Positions 5,657-58,613 of a DNA stretch of 64,000 nucleotides are shown here, piece after piece. How positions within the stretch are numbered: the first letter of the stretch is position 1; each line of letters opens with the position of its first letter. Source of the stretch: a phage; assembly GCA_024682255.1 (NCBI GenBank), contig GCA_024682255.1_4716.1; one strand, 5' to 3'. Position numbers and translations under genes: made by a program. The notes beneath the pieces were generated by a model. That model did no database searches, was not told where the DNA came from, and was given only the letters and a program-made list of their open reading frames with translations.

Positions 5657-8600
5657 TTATCTTACGTTATTGCTATTCTGCTGTTCGCTGAACCAACCAT
5701 ACACCTTGAGATCGGTACCGTATTTCAATGCGATATACGCATTCAGCGCAGCACAGAACAAAGACGCGAATGCCCATATCAGCGAAGGATCAACATCTTC
5801 CGTTACCACCTGGAGAGTATTATCCGGTTCCCATGATGGAGAACTGTCCATGAACGTTGCGTACCATCCCCGCCGTTGTTCTTCGGTGGTAAAGTCGCTA
5901 TGAGGTTCCAACGCTTCTTTTGCCAGACGTCGATATTCGAACATATGCGTTGCTAAAGCCGATGAGTTACCAGATTCGCCTTCATAGTTCGGATCCACCG
6001 CATAACAGAGTTCTGTTGAATCTAACAAAGCAACCGCCTGTGTGATGCTGTCGGCAGTACCTGCACCATAGAGCTCGATAGACCGCGAAAGCTTTTCACA
6101 GAACGTATTTAACGCGGCAGGATTGGACACCTGAAGGTCAAGGCCTAATGTCCACGGATAGTTACTGAACACACCCGTGAACCGCGGCATAACACCCAAC
6201 AGATGCTGACCGATTACGGCACGGTTATAAACAGCCCGGTTATAGACTTGAAACGCAGCCTCCAAGGCTTGGTTATAATGACGACGAAGTTCATCACGTG
6301 AGTTGCGGAATCTGTTTGCCGCAAGACTCGTGGCTGCGACGCTACAAACATCGTAATTGGTGGACGAAAGCACAACCTCGTTAAGATCGAACGCTTCCTG
6401 TTTCAATGTTCCGCTAACAGCCGCCGCTTCGCTGTTCGCTTTATCGACAACAGTACTCAAGGCGTTGATGTAACGTTTAGCTCGGACTTCCAGCCACTGT
6501 GCGATGCCGAGAATATCCACCGCAGCTTTAGCAAGATCGCGTGCATTCACGATTTCGTTCTTCAACGCCCCTAAACCTTTATTCTCAGGCGAAGAGGCTT
6601 GTTGGCGAATCATGCTGTTCAACATGGTAAGCAGATTATCCAACTCATGTCCACTGACCTTGTTACGCGCATCGGTAATCGGCCCTTGCAGGAATTTACG
6701 GCAACCGTCGTTGTATCGAATCAGTTTATCCACATCGATAGATTCGTTCGTGGATTCCTTGAACTGATCCTTCAATTCTTCACGGTAGTCGTGGATTTCA
6801 CTTGCGAGATTGTCGATAGTGATACCATCATGTCCAAGAAGAACTTTATCGAAGTTACCTTTCTCGAATGCCAGAGCAAGACCTTCACGAATCTTAGCGA
6901 GTTTATCTTGATCGAGTTCACGCCCGTTCGATAGCTCTTTCACTTCCGAACTGATTAGTGCCGCAACGTTACCCAGATTGTCGGTAACGCCTTTGAACGC
7001 TCCCGACCAGATCGTTCCTGCTTCAGCGTATTTCGCAATGGTCTGAATACCGACGGTGTGCAACGACGCTAAACGTTTCTTCGTGCCTTCGGTAAGCAGA
7101 GCGTCTTTAGCTCGTGTAAGCTGACTGTTATTGGCTTCCGCCTGCTGAATCGCTGCTTTCGCACTTCCATTACGCCAGCTCTTAACCAGCCAATCGACCA
7201 AACGTTTTAGAATGTTGACGGTGTATTCCATCGTCCGCCGTAACGTTTCCCACGCGCTTTCTGCGGTATAGATGCCGTACCCTTCCATCTTCAACGCTTT
7301 CAAGCTTGTTTGACGTGCCAACCATTCTACCGTTGCAGAACAAACGTTTACTAATGCTTCTAGGTAGTTGTAATAGACGTCTGTTGCAGCCGTTTCGTTG
7401 AGCTTTGAATGCAGATAAAACTGATCGTAAAGTTCGTCGTCATCGCCGAAGGCATCGTAGTTCCACAGCTCAGTATCGCAGCCTGTGCCGCAGAAGACGT
7501 CTGCTGTTGTAAACTCTTTAAGCGCTTTAGCCGCATCATTCGTCAGGAATTTACCTGTTTCAACTACATCATCGACGTTAAGCTTGGGGAGTTCATCGGT
7601 AACTGGCTCTTGCAACATTAACGTGTTGAAGAATGCGCTGTACTTGTATCCGAGCCATTTTGGATAACTGCTTTCAGGTATCGTAGACAACGGCTTGATT
7701 TTCTTGGCTTCAGCCAGCGTGTCTTTTGCAACCTGATATTGGTTTTCCCCAGCCTTGATGCGTCGTAACGCTTTTTCTTCCAACTGCTGGAGTTTGGCAT
7801 GCCGTGCTTGTGCTGGAGCTTCAACGAGTTTTTGTACCGACTGCATTGCTGAAATCGCTTCTTTTAATACGATCATCGGCATACGAACTTTGCCGTCGTC
7901 AAAACTAAGAGCACGAGCGACACGCTTACTTACGACAGGTTTGTCGTGGATATTTCGTTCCACCCACGATTTGTTTGCGTAAGTTTGAGCGATTTGCTGT
8001 TGGATATTTTCAAGGTATTTCCAGCTTTTGGATGCCTTGCTATCCAAAAGCGGATTCGGTCCCTTCTTATCGAAAAGTTTCAGAATCGGATCAAAGAAAC
8101 CTTCCTGTACAAGATCGATACGTGTATATCCGTCAGCCGCTTCGATTTCTTCTTGGGTTTTATCCCAAAGCTCTTCGCTACGGATAGCAGTAGCGGTTTC
8201 AGATACCGACATAACAAGCTCAGCAACAGCTTCAGCGTAAGTCAGTACGGTACGCACACATTGCACTAACATGCGCTGGTAAACGATACGTGCGTTTTGC
8301 AGACGTGCGATAACCGCTAAATATCCGATGTTGTCAAGATTTTCATCGGCTTGAGCGGATTCAACGCGTTCTAACAGTTGTTTAACTAGCGCCGCTGTTT
8401 CTGGGTAATCGTTCACGACGTCACGCATGATTCGTGATGCGAAAACCGCGGTACCTAAAACGGTGAGAAGTGTTTTACCGTCCCATTCTTTCGGTGCTGC
8501 TACCGATTCAGTAGGGATGAGATTTCCCGCTTGGTCGAAGTACGGCATAAGGACATTGATATCAGTCGACGGAACAGCAGTAACTGCGTTGTACTCTTCA

Positions 8601-9262
8601 TCCGCGCCATCGTTGCCAGACGGCTGTAAAGCAAGTGCTTGCTCAAGGATTTTGCGGTCAACGGCATAAAGCGCCGACAGAGCTTGCGTTACCGCAACCA
8701 GATCAACAATCGGTGACCAGAGCTGTGCGAGCTTACCTTCGTATTTCTGTACAGCGATAGCAAGGTCTTCTTTTACGTCTGGATGATCGATCAAACCACC
8801 CAACGTTTCATGGATGGCAGAAAAACGTTCAGAATGTGCCTGAGTCAATGCGGTAAAATCGTCAACGTAAGACGCATTTTCTTCAAGGCGTGTAAGTTCC
8901 TGCTCCAGAAGATCTTTTACCTGCGTGGTAGAGGCGTTTCTCAACTGTTCCCCGATAATCGCGATGGCTTTATCGACAACACGGCAGGCTTCATTGAAAC
9001 CGGTTGTTGAAGGTAACTCGGTCCATAATGCCAGCGGCTTACCTTCCATTGCGTCAGGAAGGGAATATGACAGCATTGTTAGTTGTTGACGTGATACCTG
9101 TTTGTCACGATGCAATGTTTCTTTCAACGCCAGAAGCTCATCAAGACCCACACTGCTAGGGATCGTGGGATGTGATACAGCGTTGATATTTTCTGTCAAT
9201 GACTCAAGAACCAATAAACCATTTTCAGCGGAAGATAACCCTGCTTTAAGGTATTTGTTCAT
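5657..9262 (-). CDS. giant alpha-helical hypothetical protein (1201 aa), likely virion internal/structural
   Basis: Long ORF, ATG start with GGAG 6 nt upstream; A/L/E/K-rich composition suggesting extended helices. Confidence 0.65.
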   Translation of the reverse strand: MNKYLKAGLSSAENGLLVLESLTENINAVSHPTIPSSVGLDELLALKETLHRDKQVSRQQLTMLSYSLPDAMEGKPLALWTELPSTTGFNEACRVVDKAIAIIGEQLRNASTTQVKDLLEQELTRLEENASYVDDFTALTQAHSERFSAIHETLGGLIDHPDVKEDLAIAVQKYEGKLAQLWSPIVDLVAVTQALSALYAVDRKILEQALALQPSGNDGADEEYNAVTAVPSTDINVLMPYFDQAGNLIPTESVAAPKEWDGKTLLTVLGTAVFASRIMRDVVNDYPETAALVKQLLERVESAQADENLDNIGYLAVIARLQNARIVYQRMLVQCVRTVLTYAEAVAELVMSVSETATAIRSEELWDKTQEEIEAADGYTRIDLVQEGFFDPILKLFDKKGPNPLLDSKASKSWKYLENIQQQIAQTYANKSWVERNIHDKPVVSKRVARALSFDDGKVRMPMIVLKEAISAMQSVQKLVEAPAQARHAKLQQLEEKALRRIKAGENQYQVAKDTLAEAKKIKPLSTIPESSYPKWLGYKYSAFFNTLMLQEPVTDELPKLNVDDVVETGKFLTNDAAKALKEFTTADVFCGTGCDTELWNYDAFGDDDELYDQFYLHSKLNETAATDVYYNYLEALVNVCSATVEWLARQTSLKALKMEGYGIYTAESAWETLRRTMEYTVNILKRLVDWLVKSWRNGSAKAAIQQAEANNSQLTRAKDALLTEGTKKRLASLHTVGIQTIAKYAEAGTIWSGAFKGVTDNLGNVAALISSEVKELSNGRELDQDKLAKIREGLALAFEKGNFDKVLLGHDGITIDNLASEIHDYREELKDQFKESTNESIDVDKLIRYNDGCRKFLQGPITDARNKVSGHELDNLLTMLNSMIRQQASSPENKGLGALKNEIVNARDLAKAAVDILGIAQWLEVRAKRYINALSTVVDKANSEAAAVSGTLKQEAFDLNEVVLSSTNYDVCSVAATSLAANRFRNSRDELRRHYNQALEAAFQVYNRAVYNRAVIGQHLLGVMPRFTGVFSNYPWTLGLDLQVSNPAALNTFCEKLSRSIELYGAGTADSITQAVALLDSTELCYAVDPNYEGESGNSSALATHMFEYRRLAKEALEPHSDFTTEEQRRGWYATFMDSSPSWEPDNTLQVVTEDVDPSLIWAFASLFCAALNAYIALKYGTDLKVYGWFSEQQNSNNVR

Positions 9263-14140: not shown

Positions 14141-15640
14141 ATGAGCGAACAAGAACGAAAACCTAAGAAGAAACTGCTCGGTATTCAATGTCGACACATC
14201 AGCTATAACGAAGCGAACGATGGCAGCAAGAACGACCTCATGATCGCAAAAGAGATCATGTTCTTTGATGATAATACGCAAGCGACGAACCTTCGCTTCT
14301 TCGAGAATTACAAACGTCCGTTTTGGGTGACGGTAGAGAGTAAACGTAAGAACAAATATAAAAAGGAAAGCGAGAAGCTCTCGCACGTACGTCGCTATGA
14401 TGTCCGTCAAAGTGAACTGGTTGAAAAGATCAGTTCGGTGCTTTATAAAAGACGTGCTGATGATAACACCCGTTTACAGCAGCTTGCACGGAGTCCATAC
14501 CTCTATGGAACGGACGTTAGCGCTAGCTGTTATTTAAAAACCCAATACAATACAAAATGGCCGGAATACGTCGATAAATTACCCGCTTCCATCGCCTGTT
14601 TCGATATCGAAACCGACGTTGTCCATGGACACGGTAAGATCGTCTGTATGTCTATTACAATGGGATACAATGCGATCCTTTGCTATACCAAGGACTTCGT
14701 TGGTCATATTCCGAATGCGATTGAGAAAACCCATGAGAAGATTCGATATTACCTGGCCGAACGTCTAAACACCAAAGAAGATCCGCACGCATTTGAAAAA
14801 TATCAGTACGATGTGCGAATCGTAGAAAGTCCGGCACAAGCGGTCATCCAATGCATGCAGAAGGTTCACGAATGGCAGCCGGATTATCTCCTTGGCTGGA
14901 ATATCGCGTTCGATATTCCGCGCATGCTCCAGGCACTGAACGAAGAAGGGTATCGTCCCGAGGATGTTTTCTCCGATCCCCGTGTACCACCTAAGTATCG
15001 TATTGCTCGCTGGGTACCACCGAAGACCGACAAGGTATCTGCTTCAGGGCGTAAAACCAACCTTACCCTTGAGCAAACCTGGCCGATGTTTTATACGATG
15101 GCTACGTATCAGGTTATGGATGCGATGTGTGGTTATAAGTTCGTTCGTTTAGGAAGACCGGATGAGGGACGTTATTCACTCGATGCGGTATTAGAGCGAA
15201 ATAAATGCCATACGAAATTAAAAGCAATTCCTGGTACAGAAGGGTTCACAGAGCTTGCGTGGCACGAAGAGATGCAAACGAACCATCAAATCGACTACGG
15301 TGTATATAACCTTTGGGATAACCAAGGCATCGAGGCGTTGGACCAGAAAACAAAAGACTATTCGATGACCATCCCTATCCGTTTAGCGGCGTCGGATTTG
15401 AAAGATTTCAGTTCTAACCCTAAACGTATCTGCGATAAACTTTTCTTCGTTTATCTTAACCGTGGGGAAGTCATGGGCTGCACTGCCGACGACATGACCC
15501 AGGAAGAAGATAAGTGGGTTATCTCACGAACCGGACATATCGTCACATTGCCGTGCGATCTCATGGCGGACAACGGCATCCATCTCTTCTGGGATATGCC
15601 GAACCTGAGAAGTTATATTAGATTATTTGTTGCGGATTAA
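14141..15640 (+). CDS. DnaQ-like (DEDDy) 3'-5' exonuclease (499 aa)
   Basis: Exo I (CFDIETD), Exo II (WNIAFDIP) and Exo III (YNLWD) motifs in canonical order; no obvious SD before the ATG. Confidence 0.65.
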   Translation: MSEQERKPKKKLLGIQCRHISYNEANDGSKNDLMIAKEIMFFDDNTQATNLRFFENYKRPFWVTVESKRKNKYKKESEKLSHVRRYDVRQSELVEKISSVLYKRRADDNTRLQQLARSPYLYGTDVSASCYLKTQYNTKWPEYVDKLPASIACFDIETDVVHGHGKIVCMSITMGYNAILCYTKDFVGHIPNAIEKTHEKIRYYLAERLNTKEDPHAFEKYQYDVRIVESPAQAVIQCMQKVHEWQPDYLLGWNIAFDIPRMLQALNEEGYRPEDVFSDPRVPPKYRIARWVPPKTDKVSASGRKTNLTLEQTWPMFYTMATYQVMDAMCGYKFVRLGRPDEGRYSLDAVLERNKCHTKLKAIPGTEGFTELAWHEEMQTNHQIDYGVYNLWDNQGIEALDQKTKDYSMTIPIRLAASDLKDFSSNPKRICDKLFFVYLNRGEVMGCTADDMTQEEDKWVISRTGHIVTLPCDLMADNGIHLFWDMPNLRSYIRLFVAD

Positions 15641-15707
15641 GAAATAAATCGGTTAAGTTTTACCTCCTTTCTCGATAAGTATGATACTAAGCGAGCAAGG
15701 AGTTGAT

Positions 15708-16814
15708 ATGTCGAGTAGTTATGAGTATCCAAAGATTACTGAATGTGTTGTTTCCGAAGAAGGTATCTTCGACCTCGATATGAAGCCGTTACCACTTACC
15801 GTGGAAGATGGAATATCGTACGTCAAACTTGACTGGTACCGTGGTCCCGGTCTGTATGACGCAGGTCTTGTGGTAATGCGTAAACTGCATGCTATCAACA
15901 TATACGAAGATCTGTTAGACGAAGCACATTCGTTGTATATCGATGGGAACCCAGAAAACATCAAACGTGAGAACTTGCTTTATCGTTTCAAGAACGGTAA
16001 GTTGGAACACAAGGGTTATCCGGGCTATTACTACGTCCCTTTCTTTACACACTACGTGATAAACGAGCAAGGCGAAGTGATCAGTCTTTTAACCGGGCAA
16101 AAGAAATCATGGACACGGTCGAAAGGGGATCCGAAACGAAATAAGCGTGCTGGGTACTTATATCAGCGCGTCGTTAATGATAATGGTTTCACAGCCCAAA
16201 TGTTTCAACATCGTGCGATGGGTTACGTGTTCCTGGAATACGGTGCCGACGTGATGACAAAGATCATCAACCACATAAACGGCATCAAATGGGATAATCG
16301 TCCATGCAACATTGAATGGACAACCTATTCTGAGAACAACAAGCATGCGATTGATAGCGGTCTTCGTACAGAAGGCTTACATCCTGTTAAGGTTAAGGAT
16401 TACAACACCGGTGAGGTTAGGGTATTCCCAACAATCGCTGCGTGCTGTGCTGCTTATCCATGCTTGGAACGTAAACGTGTTTGGTATTGGATGACGCGTA
16501 AAACGAAATTCATGCCAGCCTGCAATCTGTATTTCAAAGAAGTCGATGATGATACTCCGTGGCCAGATTGGCAAATCGGACAGCACCGTCGTCTTCAGGA
16601 ATACGATATGGGCCACCCTATCGCAGCTATCGATAAGCAAACCGGTAAACGTTATGTGTTTGCATCAATTGCTCACGCACAACGAGAGACGGGTGTTTCT
16701 AACGTGACTATCACGAAGTACTGTCGTAATAGACTTACAGAAGGTCGTTCTCCATTCATCTTCCGCTATTTTGAAGATGTTAGTTCGATGCCTGTAGGCC
16801 TTAACGACGCTTAA
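15708..16814 (+). CDS. HNH homing endonuclease with C-terminal HTH (NUMOD-like) region
   Basis: HNH motif region INHINGIKWDNRPCNIEWTTYSENNKHA; C-terminal IASIAHAQRETGVSNVTITKYC; ATG at 15708 with AAGGAG 5 nt upstream (track frame starts 15681). Confidence 0.75.
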   Translation: MSSSYEYPKITECVVSEEGIFDLDMKPLPLTVEDGISYVKLDWYRGPGLYDAGLVVMRKLHAINIYEDLLDEAHSLYIDGNPENIKRENLLYRFKNGKLEHKGYPGYYYVPFFTHYVINEQGEVISLLTGQKKSWTRSKGDPKRNKRAGYLYQRVVNDNGFTAQMFQHRAMGYVFLEYGADVMTKIINHINGIKWDNRPCNIEWTTYSENNKHAIDSGLRTEGLHPVKVKDYNTGEVRVFPTIAACCAAYPCLERKRVWYWMTRKTKFMPACNLYFKEVDDDTPWPDWQIGQHRRLQEYDMGHPIAAIDKQTGKRYVFASIAHAQRETGVSNVTITKYCRNRLTEGRSPFIFRYFEDVSSMPVGLNDA

Positions 16815-16827
16815 CCGATTTTAGGTC

Positions 16828-16852
16828 CCGGTGGGGATAACGCCCCCACCGG
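16828..16852 (+). terminator. hairpin after HNH gene (CCGGTGGGG / CCCCACCGG)
   Basis: Perfect 9-bp stem with 7-nt loop, 14 nt after the HNH stop. Confidence 0.5.
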
Positions 16853-16869
16853 ATTCCCGTTAATTGCTG

Positions 16870-17200
16870 GAACCCCCTAAAGCCTTTCGACCACAGCGGA
16901 TTCTGAAAAGAAAAACGCGATGGTTAGAAAACAGAAAGGATGTTCGTAAGGAAGCGATAAATGGGCAATCAGCAGCGAAGCTTCTAAGGGCGTGCGTTAG
17001 CAATAAGACCTAAGAAGAACGTTCAACGACTATCCGGTCGCGCGGAGTAAGGGACAAGCGTCCCCAAACACGGGAGGGGTGCGAAAGCATTCCATGATAT
17101 AGTCTGCTCCTAAGTGAAAGCTTAGGCGGGTGGCACACACCGGCATAAGAGTTGCGTCTTATGTGGACAATGGCTTGACATCTCCTCGTCCTACCCGAAT
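16870..17200 (+). ncRNA. putative group I intron catalytic core (R- and S-like elements, P9-like hairpin)
   Basis: GTTCAACGACTA (about 17021-17032) resembles the R element and GATATAGTC (about 17095-17103) the S element, with complementary GACTA/TAGTC for P7; followed by CCTAAG-TGAAAG-CTTAGG hairpin; sits directly after an HNH gene; boundaries uncertain. Confidence 0.35.
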
Positions 17201-18542: not shown

Positions 18543-18573
18543 CCCTTCCCCGGCCTTGACGGCTAGGGAAGGG
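18543..18573 (-). terminator. hairpin (CCCTTCCC / GGGAAGGG)
   Basis: 8-bp GC stem between genes 18589..18984 and 18071..18511; no strong T-run. Confidence 0.4.
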
Positions 18574-18588
18574 TATGTTTACGTATAT

Positions 18589-18984
18589 TTACTCTTTGAC
18601 GTCAGTTGTCGTTTCGACATGCTTCTCACTACTGACGTACCAGAGCAGGTACGCTGGGAAAAGATTGACCTCTAAGCTAAATGGGATATTGTATTTCTCT
18701 TCCATTTTACAGAGATGTTCTTTAAGTAAATTTCTCGCGTCTCTGTCACCACGAACAGAGTGCCAGTCTAGTTCTTTGTTCTCCTTTACCAGGACCTCTA
18801 CGATGATACGTTGCTCGTGAACCTCGGTTTTCACAGTGAAAAGTAAATCGCTGCTATCAAAACGGGTAAAACGAATGTATGAACCTGGTGTTTTTTCTTG
18901 TTTAATAATATCGATCATGGTAGAAATGCGCGGATGATCGATGTTGTCGTTAACAGCTTTAACGATGGATTCTACAATGCTCAT
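18589..18984 (-). CDS. small hypothetical protein (131 aa)
   Basis: ATG with AAGGA upstream. Confidence 0.6.
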   Translation of the reverse strand: MSIVESIVKAVNDNIDHPRISTMIDIIKQEKTPGSYIRFTRFDSSDLLFTVKTEVHEQRIIVEVLVKENKELDWHSVRGDRDARNLLKEHLCKMEEKYNIPFSLEVNLFPAYLLWYVSSEKHVETTTDVKE

Positions 18985-19141
18985 TTTTTATCCTTAATGT
19001 TATCGATTTAGAAATATTACTTAATTACTGTTTTATTTATCGATGGTTGTTACCCATGATGGGAAAGCCGGATGGAAACAGAGCGTGAACGTAACCTTCG
19101 TATCGTATTTAATCGCTGAACTTTATCTTTGATAGACATGA

Positions 19142-19600
19142 TTACCCCTTAGCTCCTTCTTCGTCTGGAGAGTATTCCATCGTGTAGAATTCATAACCAT
19201 CGGAAAACTTGAGTGTTAATGTAATAGGGAAATCGCACGGCATAGCTGATTTCGTAAATGCGTTATTAGCAACATCAGCCAACCGACGTATAGCATCGGT
19301 CCCGCTGACGCTGAACGGTAGTTGTATGTTGATAAGGATACGACGCTTGTAAACATAGAAAACAACGGTACTGTCGAGATAAACGCTATGGAACGGTATT
19401 GTTGGGATGCGTTCCACAATGGTAAAATACGTCCCGTCATTATCGCTATGCCCCATCGACCAAATATCGGATTTGCGTAGATTTTGTTTGAGGGATTCGA
19501 TACTTCGAGTGACGGTCTCAGCAACAGGCGTGACGTAAGTGTCTCTATGCGAGTCGAAAAGTTCGTTGACGTTAGATTCGAATGAATACATTGTTGCCAT
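19142..19600 (-). CDS. small hypothetical protein (152 aa), paralog of 19667..20161
   Basis: ATG with GAGGT upstream; C-terminus FPITLTLKFSDGYEFYTMEYSPDEE resembles MPVILTINGHDGSGLFEFHYDPDNE of the neighbouring gene. Confidence 0.6.
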   Translation of the reverse strand: MATMYSFESNVNELFDSHRDTYVTPVAETVTRSIESLKQNLRKSDIWSMGHSDNDGTYFTIVERIPTIPFHSVYLDSTVVFYVYKRRILINIQLPFSVSGTDAIRRLADVANNAFTKSAMPCDFPITLTLKFSDGYEFYTMEYSPDEEGAKG

Positions 19601-21364: not shown

Positions 21365-21504
21365 TTGTCTTAAATAGATGATAAGATATTTTGCTCTTAT
21401 CACTAAGGTAACGCTTACGCGTCGCGTTCATGATGCATGGCATCATGAAGGTAATGTAGTCGTGAAATAAACTGCGTTAACACGAAATAAAAAACAGCAT
21501 AGAA

Positions 21505-21536
21505 CCCTCTCCCAACCCGTAAGGGAAGGGAGAGGG
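21505..21536 (-). terminator. two-tier hairpin terminator, exact 32-nt copy of 28673..28704
   Basis: ccctctccc-aacccgtaagggaa-gggagaggg; followed on minus strand by a T-run (TGTTTTTTATTT). Confidence 0.65.
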
Positions 21537-21549
21537 AATATTAAAATTG

Positions 21550-22005
21550 TCACTTTATATTGAACGCTTTTCGCAACGCATTAAGAACTAAATTAATTTC
21601 TTGCGCTTGTAACTTTAATCCCTGTGCTGAGCCATCAAACCCAAGCCAACGCCATACAAGGCATTTTACAGGTTTGTTGCTATCGTCGATACTATATGTG
21701 ATCTCCAGTGTACTTTGATACGCGTAGTCACCATGTGTTTTCAGTGACTGATTGAAATAAATATCAAATGCTTCTTCTATAGCCTGTTTACCGCGATCGT
21801 TACAAACAAACGCGATGTATCCGTCGGAATATCCAACTTCCTCTGGATGTCCTTGGCAGGAGAAAATACTGATGGCGTCTTGCTGAGCAAGATTGAACAC
21901 CGTGAAGAAATCACCAAATAAAGGATCGAGATTTAATGCGTTGTTATCGATAAGGTTCCTTACCGCTTTACGGTATTCTCCCAGACTATTGTTCGCTGTA
22001 AACAT
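21550..22005 (-). CDS. small hypothetical protein (151 aa)
   Basis: ATG with AAAGG upstream. Confidence 0.6.
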   Translation of the reverse strand: MFTANNSLGEYRKAVRNLIDNNALNLDPLFGDFFTVFNLAQQDAISIFSCQGHPEEVGYSDGYIAFVCNDRGKQAIEEAFDIYFNQSLKTHGDYAYQSTLEITYSIDDSNKPVKCLVWRWLGFDGSAQGLKLQAQEINLVLNALRKAFNIK

Positions 22006-22015
22006 TCTTTTACCT

Positions 22016-22417
22016 TTAAATATCGTGGATAGCGGTGCCGTTTAGCCAACAATACAACTTAATGCGACACGGATAGCGATTCGTAGCCAAGAGCAGTTCA
22101 TCGCGTAAACGCTGGTAGATTTCATCCTGGTGTTCGCGATCAATGGGGTAATCGGCCCAACATTCGATCATGACGTCACCATTCGTCAGAATCGTCGTAC
22201 GCATCCTGTCCTGGATACGGCGGTCTTTCCCGGCATTAGGGAAATACATTCCTTCGGTACGAATAAGGTCGCCGCAGGGCATGACTAACCATTCGTTCGT
22301 TTTGCCGGTATTCTTATAATCCATTACAGCTTGCATTGCGGTGTCAACGCTAAAAGAAACATAATTCCAAACGGATGTCCAACGATAGATTGCGGGTTGT
22401 TCGAGTGTTTCGTTCAT
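22016..22417 (-). CDS. small hypothetical protein (133 aa)
   Basis: ATG start; 10-nt gap to downstream gene. Confidence 0.55.
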   Translation of the reverse strand: MNETLEQPAIYRWTSVWNYVSFSVDTAMQAVMDYKNTGKTNEWLVMPCGDLIRTEGMYFPNAGKDRRIQDRMRTTILTNGDVMIECWADYPIDREHQDEIYQRLRDELLLATNRYPCRIKLYCWLNGTAIHDI

Positions 22418-24598: not shown

Positions 24599-25471
24599 TT
24601 AAACCCGGGTCAGGTCACCGTGACGTGAAACGAACTCTGATAACGCTCGGGTTGCTTCTTTGGATTCTTCAGCCATCGGGAAGTTTGCGGTAATAAGTTC
24701 TCGTAAGACAGGGACGAGTTCGTTATCTTCGAGATCAGAAGCTAAAGCGAATGCAATCAGTTCTTGGGTGTATGCATACGGTTGCTGACGTAATGCAGTA
24801 AGCTGATCCCGACACTGCGACATTAGCAGGTCCAGTGGAACCGCTATCGTACCCCCTTCATCAATATACTGGCTGAACACCGGTGGGAACGCATCGCTGA
24901 TGACACGAATACGTCGACGAATATGATCCGGAATCTGGACGTTTTCTTCGTCGACGACGTTTTCGCTATCTTTCTCCAGCTTCTTGGTCAGTACCTGTTG
25001 AATGCGTGGGAGTAAGCTTGAATGTACGAAACCGATTAATGGGGTTACATTCGCAGCATCGACGCCGTAAATGTGACGCGTACATTCTGCTAACGCTTCA
25101 GCTGCGGTGTAGTCTTCATCTTCAACGATAGCAAGTAGAAAAGCGGTATCGTCGTGTGTTTCCAGGTCTAATAACGTAGACGCTAGCGCATGAAGATATT
25201 TCAGGCTATCCAGCGATAGCTGTCCTTCGTTAATTCGGATCCCGAAGGCAAGCAATTGTTGTTTATAAAGTTCGATACATCCGTTTGTTAAAATGATGTC
25301 TAATTCGTTTAAATCGTATTGTTCCCCAGCACCTGACAACATCGTACTGCAGAACGTTTCCAGTTGTTCACATTTAAAATCTTGGTATAAACGATGCGTG
25401 CAGTGCTGTAACAGCGTACGCCTTGTTTCAGGGATCTTACCTTCTAACAAAGCCAAGACGGAATCAATCAT
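24599..25471 (-). CDS. acidic Leu-rich hypothetical protein (~290 aa)
   Basis: First ATG is the third codon of the track frame, with GGAG 6 nt upstream. Confidence 0.55.
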   Translation of the reverse strand: MIDSVLALLEGKIPETRRTLLQHCTHRLYQDFKCEQLETFCSTMLSGAGEQYDLNELDIILTNGCIELYKQQLLAFGIRINEGQLSLDSLKYLHALASTLLDLETHDDTAFLLAIVEDEDYTAAEALAECTRHIYGVDAANVTPLIGFVHSSLLPRIQQVLTKKLEKDSENVVDEENVQIPDHIRRRIRVISDAFPPVFSQYIDEGGTIAVPLDLLMSQCRDQLTALRQQPYAYTQELIAFALASDLEDNELVPVLRELITANFPMAEESKEATRALSEFVSRHGDLTRV

Positions 25472-25567
25472 ATCCACTCCGATGCGGTAAATGTCTACTA
25501 GCTCTCATAATCTATTGAAGAAACTACCAGCTTACGCCAACTTAGATTAATCAGGAGTAACCATCCC

Positions 25568-26041
25568 ATGCCAGTTTCATCCAAACCAAGAAAAAAATCC
25601 GTAGGAAACCCTAAAGCTCAGGAAACAACAGCAATTCGTTGGGACGAGTTACGTGAACCTATCGAAAACTGCGAATTGTTATTAGGTACCCTGGGTGCGG
25701 CTATTTACCAAGCGACGCAGCCCTGTCGTTTACGATTAACCCAAAACAAACGTGATGAGTTCGTTGCGTTATCAACAAGCACGAATAAAGATCTGACCGA
25801 ACTTCAAACCGAATTGACGACGATCAAGAACTCCATTACGCCGATGTACGGTAAAGAAGTTGATGAACAAAGTATTCTGTTACAGTACAACTACGGGATG
25901 TCGTTAATGAACATCCTGGAACGCGCATCCGATATTCTGCGTCCTGACGTTGCACGCCTGAGCCAACTGCGTGTTGAAGGGATGGAGAACCAGATCCGAT
26001 TCGCTAACAGCGTTAAATCTCAAGGAGCCACCGAAGCATGA
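25568..26041 (+). CDS. hypothetical protein (157 aa)
   Basis: ATG with AGGAG upstream; stop overlaps next start (ATGA). Confidence 0.6.
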   Translation: MPVSSKPRKKSVGNPKAQETTAIRWDELREPIENCELLLGTLGAAIYQATQPCRLRLTQNKRDEFVALSTSTNKDLTELQTELTTIKNSITPMYGKEVDEQSILLQYNYGMSLMNILERASDILRPDVARLSQLRVEGMENQIRFANSVKSQGATEA

Positions 26042-27723
26042 GCGAACAAGAAAAAGAAGTCGTGACGAATCAGGAAGCCGTTGAGCGTTCAGAGTCGTCT
26101 GTTGAAACAACGATTCCGGCAAGTTCCGAGCCTGTTGGTTCCGTACAGCAGGAAAGTAAAGACGAAGTCAACACTACTAAAGAAGATGTAGTGGCTCCAG
26201 AAGCAACCCGTGAAGAAGAACCGTCACATCCACCGCTAATCGATTTCTCGAAGGCGACGATACGTTTCCAATGCGAAGACATTCGTCCTAAGAGTCCGAA
26301 GAAAACAAAACGTCAGCCGTTGGTGTTACCGTTATATTCTCCGCGTGTGCAGACAACGTATTACCGGGAATACATCAACGAAGCAATGGATACCGTGCAA
26401 GCCATTGTCGCTCAACGCGGTAAACCGACAGACGAACAGTTTGATAAATTCAGTAAAGCGGTGGTGCAATCGGTTGCTGATGGACAATATCATCCGCGTG
26501 GTCCAGCTCACGATCGCGCGTTGGAACGTAAAGGCAGTCAGTGGACTAACGTACCCGTAGACTCATCGGGTGTTGGTCGCGTTATTCCTGGCATTCCGCA
26601 ACCGAACCATATTCCTGATGATGTCGAAGCGCCGCTGACAGGAACCGATGCGATCTATTTTGCTATCCGTAATACGAAATCAGGCGCACCTGCGGTAATG
26701 CCGTTATGGCATAGCGGTATTAAGCTGCAGTTCAATCCGCCGTCAAATGAACGTGTTGCAATTATGCACGAACGTATTGCACGCGATAAAATCCTGGGTG
26801 GTCGTGATAGCACCGGTTTCCTGTTTTCGGCAACCTCGATTATCACCATGAAGCACGCAATCGAATTAGCGTTAGAATGCTGTTACATGGCCAACGTACC
26901 GAACCTGGATATCCAGCGTTTGAAAGACATTATTCCGGTTACCGATGTTCCGGCGTTGTTGTTGAACGTGCTGGTAACCATGTATCCGTACGGGTATCCT
27001 TACGTACAGACCTGCTATCAGAATCCAGAAACCTGCGACTATCGTGTCGAAGATACCGTAAGCTTTGCGAAGCTCTATCAAGTTGACAACAGCGCAATTA
27101 CCAAACGTATGCGACAGATCATGACCGAAGGTCCGGTCATGACAGATGAACTTTTGCGTGAGTATGCGAACGAGCTGGGTGAAACGAACTCCCGTACGCT
27201 GGATCTGTCCGACAACGGTTCTGTTATCATTGAACTCGAAGTACCGAAGATCTCACGACAAATCGCCATGGGTGAACGTTGGTTAAGCGATACGCTGGAA
27301 GATCTGCGTGATATTCTATCGCGTCCGTCGATGACCGAAGAAGAGCGTGATCGTGTTATTCGTGAACGTCAGTTCTATAGCTGGATGCGTCAGTATGATG
27401 CGTGGATCAAATCGATGCATGTGTCGGTAAACGGTACCATGCGTCGTGTAAGCGATGCAGATACGGCAACGGTATTAGCACAGCTGTCTCGTGACAGCGA
27501 CCTTCGTGAACGCTATATCGATGGGCTGATGCAATTCATCGGTGATTCGACGATTGCGCTCGCAGCGATGCCTGCCTGGAAATGTCCGAAATGTAATGCC
27601 GATATTGCTGACAATCTGCGTGACCAGAAATACTACGATCTGATTGCTTTGGATGTACCCCAGCTTTTTTTTACCCTAAACTCCGTCCAATCTCTTCAGG
27701 AGGGGATGGACGCGGTATTCTAA
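26038..27723 (+). CDS. hypothetical protein (561 aa)
   Basis: Long ORF coupled to the upstream gene; C-terminal WKCPKCNA may be a zinc-ribbon-like element. Confidence 0.6.
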   Translation: MSEQEKEVVTNQEAVERSESSVETTIPASSEPVGSVQQESKDEVNTTKEDVVAPEATREEEPSHPPLIDFSKATIRFQCEDIRPKSPKKTKRQPLVLPLYSPRVQTTYYREYINEAMDTVQAIVAQRGKPTDEQFDKFSKAVVQSVADGQYHPRGPAHDRALERKGSQWTNVPVDSSGVGRVIPGIPQPNHIPDDVEAPLTGTDAIYFAIRNTKSGAPAVMPLWHSGIKLQFNPPSNERVAIMHERIARDKILGGRDSTGFLFSATSIITMKHAIELALECCYMANVPNLDIQRLKDIIPVTDVPALLLNVLVTMYPYGYPYVQTCYQNPETCDYRVEDTVSFAKLYQVDNSAITKRMRQIMTEGPVMTDELLREYANELGETNSRTLDLSDNGSVIIELEVPKISRQIAMGERWLSDTLEDLRDILSRPSMTEEERDRVIRERQFYSWMRQYDAWIKSMHVSVNGTMRRVSDADTATVLAQLSRDSDLRERYIDGLMQFIGDSTIALAAMPAWKCPKCNADIADNLRDQKYYDLIALDVPQLFFTLNSVQSLQEGMDAVF

Positions 27724-27815
27724 TCGATCCGCGATACGGGTTACATGACGGACAACTTGTTCGTAATGATGAAAAAATCTGGGAATTGCTGTTAGCGCGT
27801 AAAGGCGATGGTGGC

Positions 27816-28145
27816 ATGAAACTGAACATCGAAATGGGTATAGCGTACGATACCATGTTTGGTTTGTACGACCGCGTTAACGAATGGACACCGTTGAAAT
27901 GGGTGGCTCAGCATCCCGCTGAAGATCCCTGGGACAGATTAGGGATTAAACCCTTAATCGAGGATTATGTTCGATTCGGTATTAAAGAGTTCATGACGCT
28001 GGATGCGTTTTTAAAAGCACCGTATCCTTACGCGCAAACGGTACTCAAAATCGCACAAGACGAACTGCGGAAACGTAGTGCGGTACTGGACGACGATGAG
28101 GACAAGTTACGACGAGAAGAAGAACGTTTACGAAACGGAAAATAA
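27816..28145 (+). CDS. small hypothetical protein (~109 aa)
   Basis: Track frame starts at a TTG at 27786; first ATG at 27816; start uncertain. Confidence 0.45.
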   Translation: MKLNIEMGIAYDTMFGLYDRVNEWTPLKWVAQHPAEDPWDRLGIKPLIEDYVRFGIKEFMTLDAFLKAPYPYAQTVLKIAQDELRKRSAVLDDDEDKLRREEERLRNGK

Positions 28146-28146
28146 A

Positions 28147-28656
28147 ATGGCGAGATTTACCAGTTTGATTGGGTTGGATATTTGGGAAACACCGGCTGAC
28201 GTTCGGGTTATTCCTGTTAACACCGTCGGTGTGATGGGACGTGGTCTTGCTAAGCAGGCAGCCGATCGTGTGCCCGGTCTTCTTGAAGCGTACCGTAAGC
28301 AATGTCAAGATGGGTTTAAGGTGGGAGAAGTCGTGTCATATCAACACGGTGATAACGATCAACTCACTTACGTGCTGTTTCCATCAAAATCGGATTGGCG
28401 TGAAAGAACACGACGCGAGTATATCGTTAACGGTTTACTGGCGTTAAAAGCGTGGTTATTGGAGCTTCAGTTCGAAAGAGACGGCTTCTCATATCGGCGT
28501 CCGGCTGAACCGCTGATCGTTGCAATTCCTCCGGTTGGTTCTGGCTGCGGTAATATCGGCTACGGACAATCCGAAACAATCCAGCCTCAATGGGTACGCG
28601 CACAAATCAAACAGTATCTTGCCACCGTGCCAAACGTTCATTTCTACTTGTTCTAA
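28147..28656 (+). CDS. macro-domain-like (ADP-ribose-binding fold) protein, putative ADP-ribosyl hydrolase
   Basis: Two glycine-rich loops in macro-domain order and spacing: VIPVNTVGVMGRGLA and IVAIPPVGSGCGNIG; ATG one nt after the preceding TAA. Confidence 0.5.
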   Translation: MARFTSLIGLDIWETPADVRVIPVNTVGVMGRGLAKQAADRVPGLLEAYRKQCQDGFKVGEVVSYQHGDNDQLTYVLFPSKSDWRERTRREYIVNGLLALKAWLLELQFERDGFSYRRPAEPLIVAIPPVGSGCGNIGYGQSETIQPQWVRAQIKQYLATVPNVHFYLF

Positions 28657-28672
28657 TGTAAAGGTAACATAA

Positions 28673-28704
28673 CCCTCTCCCAACCCGTAAGGGAAGGGAG
28701 AGGG
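28673..28704. terminator. bidirectional two-tier hairpin, exact copy of 21505..21536
   Basis: Identical 32-nt ccctctcccaacccgtaagggaagggagaggg between convergent genes ending at 28656 and 28722. Confidence 0.6.
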
Positions 28705-28721
28705 CTTATGCTGTTATGCTG

Positions 28722-29096
28722 TTAATCTTCGTTCCAGATGGCATCTTCCGGTGGAACAATAGGATCTTTCTTCGGCATTGATGGCACTTCATGACGATGC
28801 TTACGGAACTGCCTATCAATAACCTCACGAAGCCGGTACGCATCAACCCATGTTGATTTATTGAACAGCTCCAACGTCACAGTTAGCCGTGTTCTCGACA
28901 TTGAATAGCTTTTCTTTGCAATCAAATTGGGATAATTCAGTTGAGCGAACCACGCACGTATTTGTGCTTCGGTAAAAGCGATGCTGTAATAACTAAGTTT
29001 ACCGTCATTAAAATCGTGCGCGTGGGTGTAGCGTCCAGCGTAACGCCAGACAAGATGCACATTCAGATCGATCCATGGTGGGGTGGTATCAGCCAT
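28722..29096 (-). CDS. hypothetical protein (124 aa)
   Basis: ATG with GAGGG upstream. Confidence 0.55.
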   Translation of the reverse strand: MADTTPPWIDLNVHLVWRYAGRYTHAHDFNDGKLSYYSIAFTEAQIRAWFAQLNYPNLIAKKSYSMSRTRLTVTLELFNKSTWVDAYRLREVIDRQFRKHRHEVPSMPKKDPIVPPEDAIWNED

Positions 29097-29105
29097 GTGT
29101 TACCC

Positions 29106-29675
29106 TCAACGATTCTTCATCACTTTACCTAGGCTTTCGATATTATCCCAAAAGCGATTTTTACTTGGCGCATCACCGACGATAACCGACATCAAATCAC
29201 GACGTTCACGACTGATGATGCCTTGTGATTTCCAGATCACCATCGTCCAGCAAGCTGCCAGAACGAACAGATGGTTAATGCTTGGTTTGGTTTGCGCAAT
29301 GAACGCAAGCCATGCCCAGATACCGGTGTATACTATCGTCACTAAAAAGAGCGAGATTGTTGCAACGACAACAACGAAGTTTTGGACAGCGGGTTGATTC
29401 GCGTTATCATGAATAGCGGTAAGATCAGGAAGGTTACCTTCAACTGAACTCGTTTCATCGATTTCCAATTCTTCGATTTCTTTTCGTGTGTCAGGAGCTA
29501 ATCCAGCATCATCGAGATGCTTTTTTAACCGCTGTATGCTTAATCGTTGACCGACAGGAATGTTGATGTTGTCGTAACTATTAAGCGCATCGACCAGGGA
29601 GCGTCCGTCAACGAGAACCAAGCTCGCGGTACCCATCGTTTGCGGTTTTATTTTGTAAAGGTCTTTTACTTTCAT
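29106..29675 (-). CDS. membrane protein (189 aa, multiple TM segments)
   Basis: ATG with GGAGGT upstream; hydrophobic segments VVVVATISLFLVTIVYTGIWAWLAFI and LFVLAACWTMVIW. Confidence 0.55.
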   Translation of the reverse strand: MKVKDLYKIKPQTMGTASLVLVDGRSLVDALNSYDNINIPVGQRLSIQRLKKHLDDAGLAPDTRKEIEELEIDETSSVEGNLPDLTAIHDNANQPAVQNFVVVVATISLFLVTIVYTGIWAWLAFIAQTKPSINHLFVLAACWTMVIWKSQGIISRERRDLMSVIVGDAPSKNRFWDNIESLGKVMKNR

Positions 29676-29696
29676 GTAGACACCACCTCCAACGTG

Positions 29697-32309
29697 TTAA
29701 GCGTCCGGCGTAAAATCAAAAGGAATGTCCGTACGAATGATATCATAACGTTTTCCGAGGAAATAGAACTCTTCGGGAACCTGGCCTGGAATGATGCTAT
29801 CACCGATGAACTGCGGATACGCCCAGATGTACTGGGTGAGTCCTTCGAACATATCCAGGTTATTTGCGTGGTTGCCCATGATACGTTTCCAGAGTTCGCG
29901 TTTATACGGCGTTTTAACATCGAACCCATAAAGCGGTGCGAGGTCTTCACCAGGAACAAATCCCAGGTAATAGTGGATCTGACTAACTGGGAAACCAAGG
30001 GTATCTCGCGGAATGGTGATCGCTTGCTCAGCCTTGGTGACATGCGTCTCAATAATCCAGTCATAGCACTCTGAATAGAACCGATCGAATTTCTCTGGAT
30101 TATACCACGCTTTGGGAAGATTGAGTTTCTCCGTGAACGCGTTCGACATGATCGTCGGCAAGAACGGAAGAACGCCGGTTTTGATCTGCGTGTATTTCGA
30201 TTTTACCCGGTTAACGAGATTCCAGCAACTGTATCCTAACTGTTCGTTACAAAACTCAACATAGAGATCGTAGTCACCACCGGATAACGGGTTGTTAATA
30301 TCACCGATGTCTGCGGCGTATTTGTTGGGATATCGGTTATTGAAAGCCAGTTTGGTTTGGTAGTCGTAGATACACGGTTTGTTGTTCGCTGTATTGATCC
30401 ACCACCAGGGTTCACCTACTTGTACACAAATGTCCTGGACATGAGGGTAAATGATATCAGCAAACGCGGTTAACACATCCCCTAACCACGTCATCGCCTG
30501 TTGGTTACATGGAGACAACAACCAAGACGGTGGCGTATATCCGGTTGCTGCGATGTTTCCTTCCCAATCCTGCTGCGCCCACTCGAACGGGCATGCGGTA
30601 CTCATCAATTCGTAACTTAAACTGATGGTGACGGAGAAATGGTGTTTTGCAGCATATGCGGCGAAAGCTTCATGCCACGCGATACAGGCCGGATTTAATA
30701 CATCCGTGGTGTTCACCAGTAACTTACCCGCACTTGGCGTCCAGACAGTATCGTAGAAATGCGACATCCCAACATAATGCACTAATTCATCTTGATACCC
30801 CGCATAAACCAGGTTCTCAAATACGCGCTCCGGCGTGATGTTGTAATGGTCATCATAAGCGGTTATCGCACGAAGTTCGTGTGGCGTACAGTGGTGGCGA
30901 CTAACCGTCATTTCCTGATACACCCCATCGATAGGAAGAATCTCGATGGTTAAACCGAGGTCGATTGGCGTTTCCAGATAGGTCGTTTCAGTCGCATCTT
31001 CCTTATAATGTCGAGAACTCATGCTGAACATCAACGACGTTACCGATTCGAGTTCGATGGGTTCGTCAGCATAGAACCCCGCCATTGCGTCATTGAAATC
31101 GATCGTCACGATTGCGCTTCTACCGTCTTCAGAGACATCGGTCGCATATCGGGTTAATGAGATATACTGACGGCTATCGTCTTTGTGTACGACGGTTAAA
31201 ACCGGCGGGTGTTCGGTATCTGCAAAGTTACGCTGATCGCCAGTAAACGTGACCTTCGCTTTAAAGATCAAACCGAGTAACGATGTCATGGGATCATACG
31301 CAATACATCCGTGATCCAGCGTATCCGTTGTCCGCCATTCTATCCCGACCAACCCGTTAGCGGTATGACATCGCATATACGCATTAAGTGTCATGTCCTC
31401 ACTGACAACCGCGAAGTTCTCTGTTGACTGACCGTTGATAATCCAATACATCGGTTGCCAGAGGTTACGCGTACCTTTTGCGTAGCGGTAGGTTGGTGCG
31501 CCTTTGGGGTTGCCATTATTAAGATGGAATACGGCAGTACCTTGATAATGGTCGTTCGTATTAATCGGAACACTGTAAGCATCGCCGAGGTCCGTACGTT
31601 CCACCTTCGTGACTGTCGCGTTTTCAAATAACCCACGTAGCGCGGGTAAACCGATATCTTCCGGCGCGTTTTCTCGACGAATCGCATCCGCGATGCGGTG
31701 GGCTAAGGCGGGGTAAATGACCTCACCCTGTTGTAGGTTTGCAAGACCTACAAAGCGATCGGGAGCGATACCAGCAATCAATAACTCGACATCACCCTTC
31801 GTTCTATCGTCGTTAAGATATTTCAGTCCGGTAAGGTCAAGATGCTGAATAAGCGACAACAGGTTGTATTTACGGTTTTCAACAGTTAGTACAAGATCGC
31901 CCGCCCAAACCAAACTTCCCTCATCCGCTGTTACTTTAACGGATTGTCGGCCCGTGGTAGACGTTGTTGTCGTTTTATTTAATTGTCCTTGTAGGAAGTC
32001 GGTTGCGAGGTCAAAGGCGATACCGTAACGGTCAGCGACCGCTTGCATGATTTCACGTAACTGGGTATCTTCTTCAATGATAATCTTGACAGGTATTCCC
32101 AAGAACGCTTTAGCGAGGTCTCGTTTAACCAACGAGACGAATACGGATTTGTAGTATCGGCTTCCATCTTTCCCTTTAAAAAGAATGGAGGTTGTTTCGG
32201 GTGCCGATAGAACACGTGCAAATACAACATCGTCGGAAGTAAGAGAAAGTCCGTTTTTCTCGTTGACCAATCTTAGTATTTCATTTTGCGCGGTTTCATG
32301 TAACTTCAT
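29697..32309 (-). CDS. tailspike / tail-fibre-like protein (870 aa) with N-terminal anchor domain
   Basis: N-terminal region (RDLAKAFLGIPVKIIIEE ... DRYGIAFDLATDF) is paralogous to the short proteins at 38096..38623 and 42439..43269; long Trp/Tyr-rich C-terminal domain. Confidence 0.55.
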   Translation of the reverse strand: MKLHETAQNEILRLVNEKNGLSLTSDDVVFARVLSAPETTSILFKGKDGSRYYKSVFVSLVKRDLAKAFLGIPVKIIIEEDTQLREIMQAVADRYGIAFDLATDFLQGQLNKTTTTSTTGRQSVKVTADEGSLVWAGDLVLTVENRKYNLLSLIQHLDLTGLKYLNDDRTKGDVELLIAGIAPDRFVGLANLQQGEVIYPALAHRIADAIRRENAPEDIGLPALRGLFENATVTKVERTDLGDAYSVPINTNDHYQGTAVFHLNNGNPKGAPTYRYAKGTRNLWQPMYWIINGQSTENFAVVSEDMTLNAYMRCHTANGLVGIEWRTTDTLDHGCIAYDPMTSLLGLIFKAKVTFTGDQRNFADTEHPPVLTVVHKDDSRQYISLTRYATDVSEDGRSAIVTIDFNDAMAGFYADEPIELESVTSLMFSMSSRHYKEDATETTYLETPIDLGLTIEILPIDGVYQEMTVSRHHCTPHELRAITAYDDHYNITPERVFENLVYAGYQDELVHYVGMSHFYDTVWTPSAGKLLVNTTDVLNPACIAWHEAFAAYAAKHHFSVTISLSYELMSTACPFEWAQQDWEGNIAATGYTPPSWLLSPCNQQAMTWLGDVLTAFADIIYPHVQDICVQVGEPWWWINTANNKPCIYDYQTKLAFNNRYPNKYAADIGDINNPLSGGDYDLYVEFCNEQLGYSCWNLVNRVKSKYTQIKTGVLPFLPTIMSNAFTEKLNLPKAWYNPEKFDRFYSECYDWIIETHVTKAEQAITIPRDTLGFPVSQIHYYLGFVPGEDLAPLYGFDVKTPYKRELWKRIMGNHANNLDMFEGLTQYIWAYPQFIGDSIIPGQVPEEFYFLGKRYDIIRTDIPFDFTPDA

Positions 32310-55949: not shown

Positions 55950-58613
<2,664 letters not shown>

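Follow-up and report, generated by a model that had tools for sequence, protein, structure and literature searches.

The window analysed here, i.e., the whole stretch of 64,000 nucleotides of phage DNA, contains a gene for a genuine macrodomain of the DarG class, and with a probability of about 80% we consider its product to be an AdfM, an antitoxin-like orphan enzyme with DNA ADP-ribosyl glycohydrolase activity that counters the DarTG2 system of E. coli. The finding as such is already known and its value as a discovery is small, since the orthologue in Escherichia phage vB_EcoM_Goslar is annotated and the family was characterised in 2026 by Morgan et al. (Cell Rep, PMC13309987), who established the mechanism in sister phages and list Goslar gp83 as an AdfM.

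The gene is an open reading frame with 169 codons followed by a stop, and its translation is identical to the protein on which the original prediction of a macro-domain-like product had been based. Both glycine-rich loops of that prediction were recovered in the 169-aa product where it had placed them, namely VIPVNTVGVMGRGLA at residues 21–35 and IVAIPPVGSGCGNIG at residues 124–138. Its likening of the first loop to NAAN-x-L-x-GGGV was right with regard to the glycine loop, but not with regard to the motif class, since this consensus is the MacroD-type motif and the loop found here is of the DarG/TARG1 type (V-N-T-V-G-V-M-G-x-G-x-A). The features of the gene and of the remaining window are compiled in Table 1.

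Table 1. Position of the features described in the text, numbered along the window.
Feature	Position	Strand	Description
adfM-like gene	28147..28656	+	169-aa stand-alone DarG-type macrodomain; orthologue of Goslar gp83, homologue of phiKZ gp104 and PhiPA3 gp108
Loop 1, residues 23–35, PVNTVGVMGRGLA	28213..28251	+	holds N25 (codon 28219–28221)
P-S-K-S-D-W-R motif	28381..28401	+	holds K81 (codon 28387–28389)
Insertion relative to bacterial DarG, about residues 107–122	28465..28512	+	between long helix and following strand
Loop 2, residues 128–138, PPVGSGCGNIG	28528..28560	+	diphosphate-binding glycine loop (G131, G133, G135)
Extra upstream codons of the Goslar gp083 call	28096–28146; Goslar NC_048170.1 92868–92918		basis: record comparison
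Upstream co-directional gene	27786..28145	+	Goslar gp82 orthologue without known domain; stop 1 nt before the adfM start
G+C-rich hairpin	28668..28710		separates the adfM-like gene from the convergent gene 28722–29096 on the minus strand; folding z -4.0 and z -5.7
1201-aa ORF	5657–9262	-	Goslar counterpart gp064, 930 aa
HNH_3/NUMOD1 homing-endonuclease ORF	15681–16814	+	inside unmatched stretch 15640–17191, directly after DNA polymerase fragment gene 14141–15640
ORFs in unmatched stretches	18589–18984; 21550–22005	both -	no Pfam domains
870-aa protein	29697–32309	-	Pfam "Non-contractile tail sheath protein TIM barrel" 1.5e-84, DUF7941, NCTSP_N
NAD-dependent DNA ligase, LigA type	56263–58332	-	adenylation (Pfam 1e-80), OB, Zn-finger, HhH and BRCT domains; complete

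Comparison at the nucleotide level clearly placed the window next to phage Goslar, a nucleus-forming jumbo phage of the Chimalliviridae: a 3-kb query (window 27000–30000) matched it over its full length with 96% identity, and the remaining window aligned to it at 83–97% identity. At the protein level, the gene product was 97% identical to Goslar gp83 (HOV27_gp083; RefSeq "macro domain-containing protein"), and over the full length it shared 33% and 31% identity with phiKZ gp104 and PhiPA3 gp108, respectively. The codons differing from the Goslar orthologue comprise 24 synonymous and 5 non-synonymous changes, and the resulting pN/pS of 0.07 shows that the gene is maintained by strong purifying selection. 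A 99%-identical copy labelled as a hypothetical protein (P0001) was also detected on an 809-bp contig of Salmonella enterica serovar Muenchen, which is probably Goslar-like phage DNA inside a bacterial assembly.

In the RefSeq and GenBank records of Goslar, gp083 starts 17 codons further upstream, giving a product of 186 aa that overlaps the end of gp082. The co-directional gene upstream terminates 1 nt ahead of the ATG at 28147, and the N-terminus MA-x-F that this ATG yields is common to the window protein, phiKZ gp104, PhiPA3 gp108 and more distant relatives (down to 47% identity). Based on this conserved N-terminus and the stop-then-ATG junction, the start giving 169 aa is indicated as the correct one. 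The gene closes a block of four genes on the plus strand (25568–28656), of which the gp82 orthologue is the third. The order of this block is kept in a metagenomic relative with 47% identity in the macrodomain and 43% and 54% in its neighbours, where the gene call begins at the matching MA-x-F as well. Three co-directional genes upstream and two convergent genes downstream carry no Pfam domain, and the gene following them is tail-sheath-like. Synteny holds within the Goslar clade; with respect to PhiPA3, the upstream window proteins revealed no significant BLASTP similarity to gp106 and gp107 in the neighbourhood of its adfM, so that the orthology to the phiKZ and PhiPA3 proteins rests on the protein itself. 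Downstream of the gene, the strong G+C-rich hairpin is probably a bidirectional transcription terminator; the Goslar record carries a terminator annotation at this place. A scan of 25300–29200 for sigma-70 promoters and U-tract terminators gave nothing useful, and the hairpin was missed by the U-tract consensus; since Goslar-type phages use their own RNA polymerases, such a scan is uninformative here.

Searches against domain libraries consistently assigned the protein to the macrodomains, with a similarity well in excess of what chance would give. Residues 23–141 matched positions 3–113 of the 118 positions of the Pfam Macro profile PF01661 with 25.9 bits (E=1e-5), exceeding the curated gathering score of 22 bits, and PHROG 335 was matched at 1e-18. 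The DarG model was the sole or top match in the PADLOC library (4e-22), and antitoxin_DarG was the top match in the NCBIfam library (9e-23). Apart from that, Pfam DUF7242 stayed below threshold (17.9 bits vs a cutoff of 27), covering only the N-terminus and loop 1 (residues 4–55). When the single sequence was searched against the PDB, the best hits were the DarG macrodomains of T. aquaticus (5m31/5m3e, 5e-15) and M. tuberculosis (5m3i, 4e-11). A family profile from an alignment of 14 sequences (A1) raised the DarG structures to 7e-42, 9e-42 and 5e-35, followed by human TARG1 with 5e-14 and the other macrodomain classes (Poa1p, PARP14, macroH2A and viral nsP3) with 6e-8 or weaker. Thus, both by profile and by the structural comparison described below, DarG is closer to the window protein than any other class of macrodomains.

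This ranking also bears on the names under which such genes are found in databases. The PHROG 335 label reads "phosphatase", the Goslar record cites cd02901 Macro_Poa1p_like, and several homologues are annotated as Appr-1-p processing or O-acetyl-ADP-ribose deacetylase proteins, which would make the product a housekeeping metabolite enzyme, i.e., a Poa1p-like ADP-ribose 1''-phosphate phosphatase or an O-acetyl-ADP-ribose deacetylase. We consider this very improbable, as these labels are inherited names and not tests, the Poa1p structures reached only 7e-5 to 1.7e-4 by profile in comparison to 7e-42 for DarG and ranked 21 or lower in Foldseek, the DarG-type catalytic Lys is conserved, and it is not apparent why a phage should require a phosphatase of a tRNA-splicing by-product. 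The phosphatase or Poa1p-like label was therefore rejected.

Extremely improbable in our view is a role as a binder or degrader of free ADP-ribose or of an NAD-derived immune signal, which would shield the phage from defences that are Thoeris-like or deplete NAD. Degradation of such signals had been part of the original prediction, and it is true that macrodomains in general bind ligands containing ADP-ribose and that the phage ligase depends on NAD. However, the nearest relatives are glycohydrolases of ADP-ribosylated DNA and not signal-degrading enzymes, the protein keeps the catalytic residues expected of a glycohydrolase, and searches of PADLOC, PHROGs and the PDB revealed no similarity to known sponges or degraders, DarG being the sole defence-related match. 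The NAD-dependent ligase brought forward in this context was indeed found in the genome, but its relevance to the gene was not borne out, as it lies 28 kb away in an unrelated context. The suggested importance of NAD pool integrity is not supported either, since the DarT2 defence modifies DNA rather than depleting NAD.

Though of the DarG class, the protein is not a DarG2 antitoxin, an identity that was rejected because it has no C-terminal DarT-binding domain and no adjoining toxin gene. NCBIfam model NF048014 was matched only over positions 7–146 of 338 with 81.1 bits, compared to an equivalog cutoff of 250, and the 169-aa protein covered only positions 8–143 of the 329 positions of the PADLOC DarG model. 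A darT toxin gene was not detected by Pfam among the flanking genes, nor is one annotated at this place in Goslar. With the DarG2 proteins of T. aquaticus (5M31/5M3E), M. tuberculosis (5M3I) and Thermosipho (7OMU), the window protein shares the macrodomain subclass, the catalytic residues, the fold and presumably the chemistry, i.e., hydrolysis of thymidine-linked ADP-ribose on single-stranded DNA, but it is a phage protein and would act against the system rather than as a part of it.

An AlphaFold2 model based on alignment A1 displayed a three-layer alpha/beta/alpha macro fold with a mean pLDDT of 86.5 and a pTM of 0.85. Foldseek comparison with the PDB ranked T. aquaticus DarG in complex with ADP-ribose first (5m3e, E=2e-13, target-normalised TM 0.87). 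Ranks 1–4 were all occupied by DarG macrodomains, including those of M. tuberculosis and of the DarTG complex from Thermosipho, and TARG1 came next. Altogether, 150 PDB matches were obtained at E<=1e-3, and among the matches listed, 50 of 50 were macrodomains or macrodomain-scaffold designs. Structure prediction, which had been proposed as a way to expose a non-macro fold, thus returned the macro fold with DarG at the top, and in the alignment with verified macro domains proposed along with it, for which DarG was used here, N25 and K81 were present. In HMMER alignments with DarG, N25 corresponds to N22 of T. aquaticus DarG, and it aligns to N23 of phiKZ AdfM; K81 falls on the Lys that is catalytic in DarG (K80 in T. 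aquaticus, K78 in phiKZ). Morgan et al. (PMC13309987) designate N22 and K80 of T. aquaticus DarG as catalytic.

Conservation of these residues was counted over 149 of the best-scoring family representatives aligned with the window protein. N25 and K81 were each present in 148 of the 149, and the loop glycines were similarly invariant (G31, G33 and G135 in 149/149, G131 in 148/149, G133 in 145/149). Residue 136 deviates from this pattern, being Asn in the window protein and Gly in 101 of the 149 representatives. Immediately after loop 2, at about residues 136–146, follows an insertion that is confined to the Goslar clade and was modelled with low confidence; residues 135–141, which overlap its start, had a pLDDT below 50. 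A still longer insertion at this site was seen in the relatives P0006 and P0007. The second insertion, at about residues 107–122, was modelled with moderate confidence (about residues 111–120 belong to the less confident parts of the model), and phiKZ gp104 and PhiPA3 gp108 carry an insertion of different sequence at the same site.

Human TARG1/OARD1 (C6orf130; 4J5Q–4J5S) is the second-closest class, with a TM of about 0.82–0.86 and the catalytic Lys at the same position, but it shares only 15–18% identity with the window protein, is eukaryotic, and acts mainly on protein-linked ADP-ribose. Its second catalytic residue, which we take to be the Asp of a GLDRL motif (D125), is presumably matched by Asn136 in the window protein. 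These data are relevant to the question whether the product might be a broader or different eraser that removes ADP-ribose from proteins or RNA and counters other ADP-ribosyltransferase defences or effectors, e.g., mRNA ADP-ribosylation by CmdT, instead of or besides the modification of DNA by DarT2. Such a function, which we regard as unlikely, would agree with TARG1 being the next-closest class by structure and sequence, with the clade-specific insertion and the G-to-N change beside loop 2, which could alter substrate choice, and with the existence of an mRNA ADP-ribosyltransferase defence in E. coli (PMC11618068). On the other hand, DarG macrodomains exceed TARG1 by about 28 orders of magnitude in the profile search, Asn rather than Asp occupies the position of the second catalytic residue of TARG1, and the tested homologues act on DNA (PMC13309987).

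The experimental basis for reading the gene as an AdfM comes from its homologues in other chimalliviruses. Phage phiKZ gp104 was named AdfM ("anti-DarT factor macro"), as was its homologue PhiPA3 gp108, while Goslar gp83 (YP_009820768.1) appears in the same study in the AdfM alignment of Figure 1B only (PMC13309987). Purified phiKZ gp104 stripped ADP-ribose added by DarT2 from a DNA oligonucleotide in vitro, with reduced activity of the N23A variant, and AdfM neutralised the toxicity of DarT2 (PMC13309987). The AdfM proteins of phiKZ, PhiPA3 and Asesino localised to the phage nucleus, and deletion of AdfM cost phiKZ and PhiPA3 3–6 logs in titre on hosts with DarTG2 (PMC13309987). The possibility that a macro-domain eraser reverses DarT-like toxins, as originally put forward for the window protein, is thus in agreement with sequence, profile and fold as well as with these experiments. 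Earlier, phiKZ gp104 had served as a model cargo for nuclear import dependent on PicA, which in Goslar is gp174, and an antisense knock-down screen classed this macro-domain protein as non-core, its phenotype in the defence-poor host being no more than mild.

Like the AdfM proteins of chimalliviruses (phiKZ gp104, PhiPA3 gp108, Asesino gp217 and Goslar gp83), the window protein is a stand-alone, DarG-like protein of about 160–170 aa from a jumbo phage, with the Asn/Lys catalytic pair, the MA-x-F N-terminus and an insertion before the beta-strand leading into loop 2. It differs from the tested phiKZ and PhiPA3 proteins by the low identity given above and by the post-loop-2 insertion of the Goslar clade, and its host is E. 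coli in place of Pseudomonas or Erwinia. T4 Tk.4 was independently named AdfM, and its macrodomain is needed for resistance of T4 to DarTG2 in E. coli (bioRxiv 10.1101/2025.11.20.689424). Though it agrees with the window protein in being a stand-alone phage macrodomain directed against DarTG2 in E. coli, in name and in proposed mechanism, it has a Tyr at the site of the catalytic Lys, and T4 forms no phage nucleus. The relationship is remote (BLASTP 2e-5, 25% identity over 114 residues; hhalign probability 93.5%), and a tblastn search with the window protein returned no T4-like records at E<=10. An identity with T4 AdfM was therefore rejected, and the remoteness of Tk.4 together with the Tyr at the K81 position leads us to conclude that the two proteins named AdfM belong to separate macrodomain lineages, the window protein being a member of the DarG-like lineage of the chimalliviruses. 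AdfN, represented by T4 30.3 and further NADAR proteins of phages (Johannesman et al. 2025, PMC11825919), is likewise an orphan copy of an antitoxin domain that erases DNA ADP-ribosylation made by DarT and is directed against DarTG1 in T4-like phages, but it has a NADAR fold, acts on guanosine-linked ADP-ribose (DarT1) and does not counter DarTG2.

Based on these comparisons, we propose the following mechanism for the DarG-type macrodomain of the window. In an E. coli host with DarTG2, the thymidines of single-stranded phage DNA are ADP-ribosylated by DarT2 at the expense of NAD+, which blocks replication and packaging. The phage macrodomain would bind the ADP-ribose with both glycine loops, and N25 and K81, the Asn/Lys pair of the DarG type, would cut the bond between ADP-ribose and thymidine and thereby restore unmodified DNA. 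As in phiKZ, PhiPA3 and Asesino, the protein probably enters the chimallin-bounded nucleus that houses the phage DNA. Its hydrolase activity, its import into the nucleus and the protection it confers from DarTG2 are in this way predicted from the homologues, and for the removal of ADP-ribose from DNA we infer the same from the conserved residues. The substrate preference could differ from that of the tested AdfMs in view of the 31–33% identity, the insertion after loop 2 and Asn136. That this insertion and the Asn alter the substrate range or a partner, giving access to another ADP-ribosylated base or RNA or forming a species-specific surface for nuclear import, seems rather unlikely to us. 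Nuclear import in chimalliviruses is species-specific and depends on surface features that are unpredictable from sequence (PMC11087766).

Related genes were found well beyond the Goslar clade. At E<=1e-5, 167 phage records contained a homologue according to tblastn (phiKZ-like phages at 2e-14), mostly phiKZ-like, SPN3US-like and Erwinia jumbo phages and some phiEco32-like Escherichia phages of 76–79 kb. Related stand-alone DarG-like macrodomains were seen in phiEco32 (EU330206.1, 34905–35231), Bas91 (PQ850614.1), Thermus phage phiMa (MH673674.1, 27047–27466) and, for cyanophages, Pseudanabaena phage PA-SR01. The phiEco32-like, Thermus and cyanophage carriers stand outside the jumbo phages or the known chimalliviruses, and in the literature consulted their macrodomains do not appear among the tested anti-DarT2 factors. 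A word-indexed homologue search had yielded 15 proteins only; the size of the family was revealed by an exhaustive search of representatives, in which 2,897 representatives were related at E<=1e-3. Most members of this wider family of about 2,900 clusters are stand-alone proteins of about 150 aa, which suggests that orphan DarG-like macrodomains are common.

Apart from the adfM-like gene, several differences from Goslar were noted in the window. The homing-endonuclease ORF showed no detectable DNA similarity to Goslar or other phage records, and Goslar gp069 sits at the matching position, which suggests that a different endonuclease allele replaced the gp069-type at one site. In the 1201-aa ORF, about 1.7 kb in the middle (7292–8964) had neither a blastn match to Goslar nor a Pfam domain and represent a hypervariable or expanded region of a large protein. 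Two stretches of about 600 bp each (18573–19156 and 21411–22016) without a match in Goslar are probably accessory-gene swaps between Goslar-like phages. Conversely, Goslar gp108 (115238–115654) has no counterpart in the window (junction at about 50487/50533), and the same applies to gp120 (121396–122103), where the deletion is essentially exact (junction 56273/56274) and abuts the 3' end of the ligase gene. For the 870-aa protein, the Goslar orthologue gp086 is annotated only as "hypothetical protein", with "weakly similar to capsid protein" added as a remark; the Pfam name of a non-contractile sheath is odd in this case, as the prefix vB_EcoM denotes a myovirus with a contractile tail.

Altogether, from the assignment of the gene one would expect Goslar-type jumbo phages of E. 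coli to be resistant to DarTG2, which has a bearing on their host range and on the design of phage therapy. As Goslar and E. coli are genetically more tractable for knock-down than phiKZ, they would make a good test bed for the cooperation of an anti-defence enzyme with the phage nucleus.
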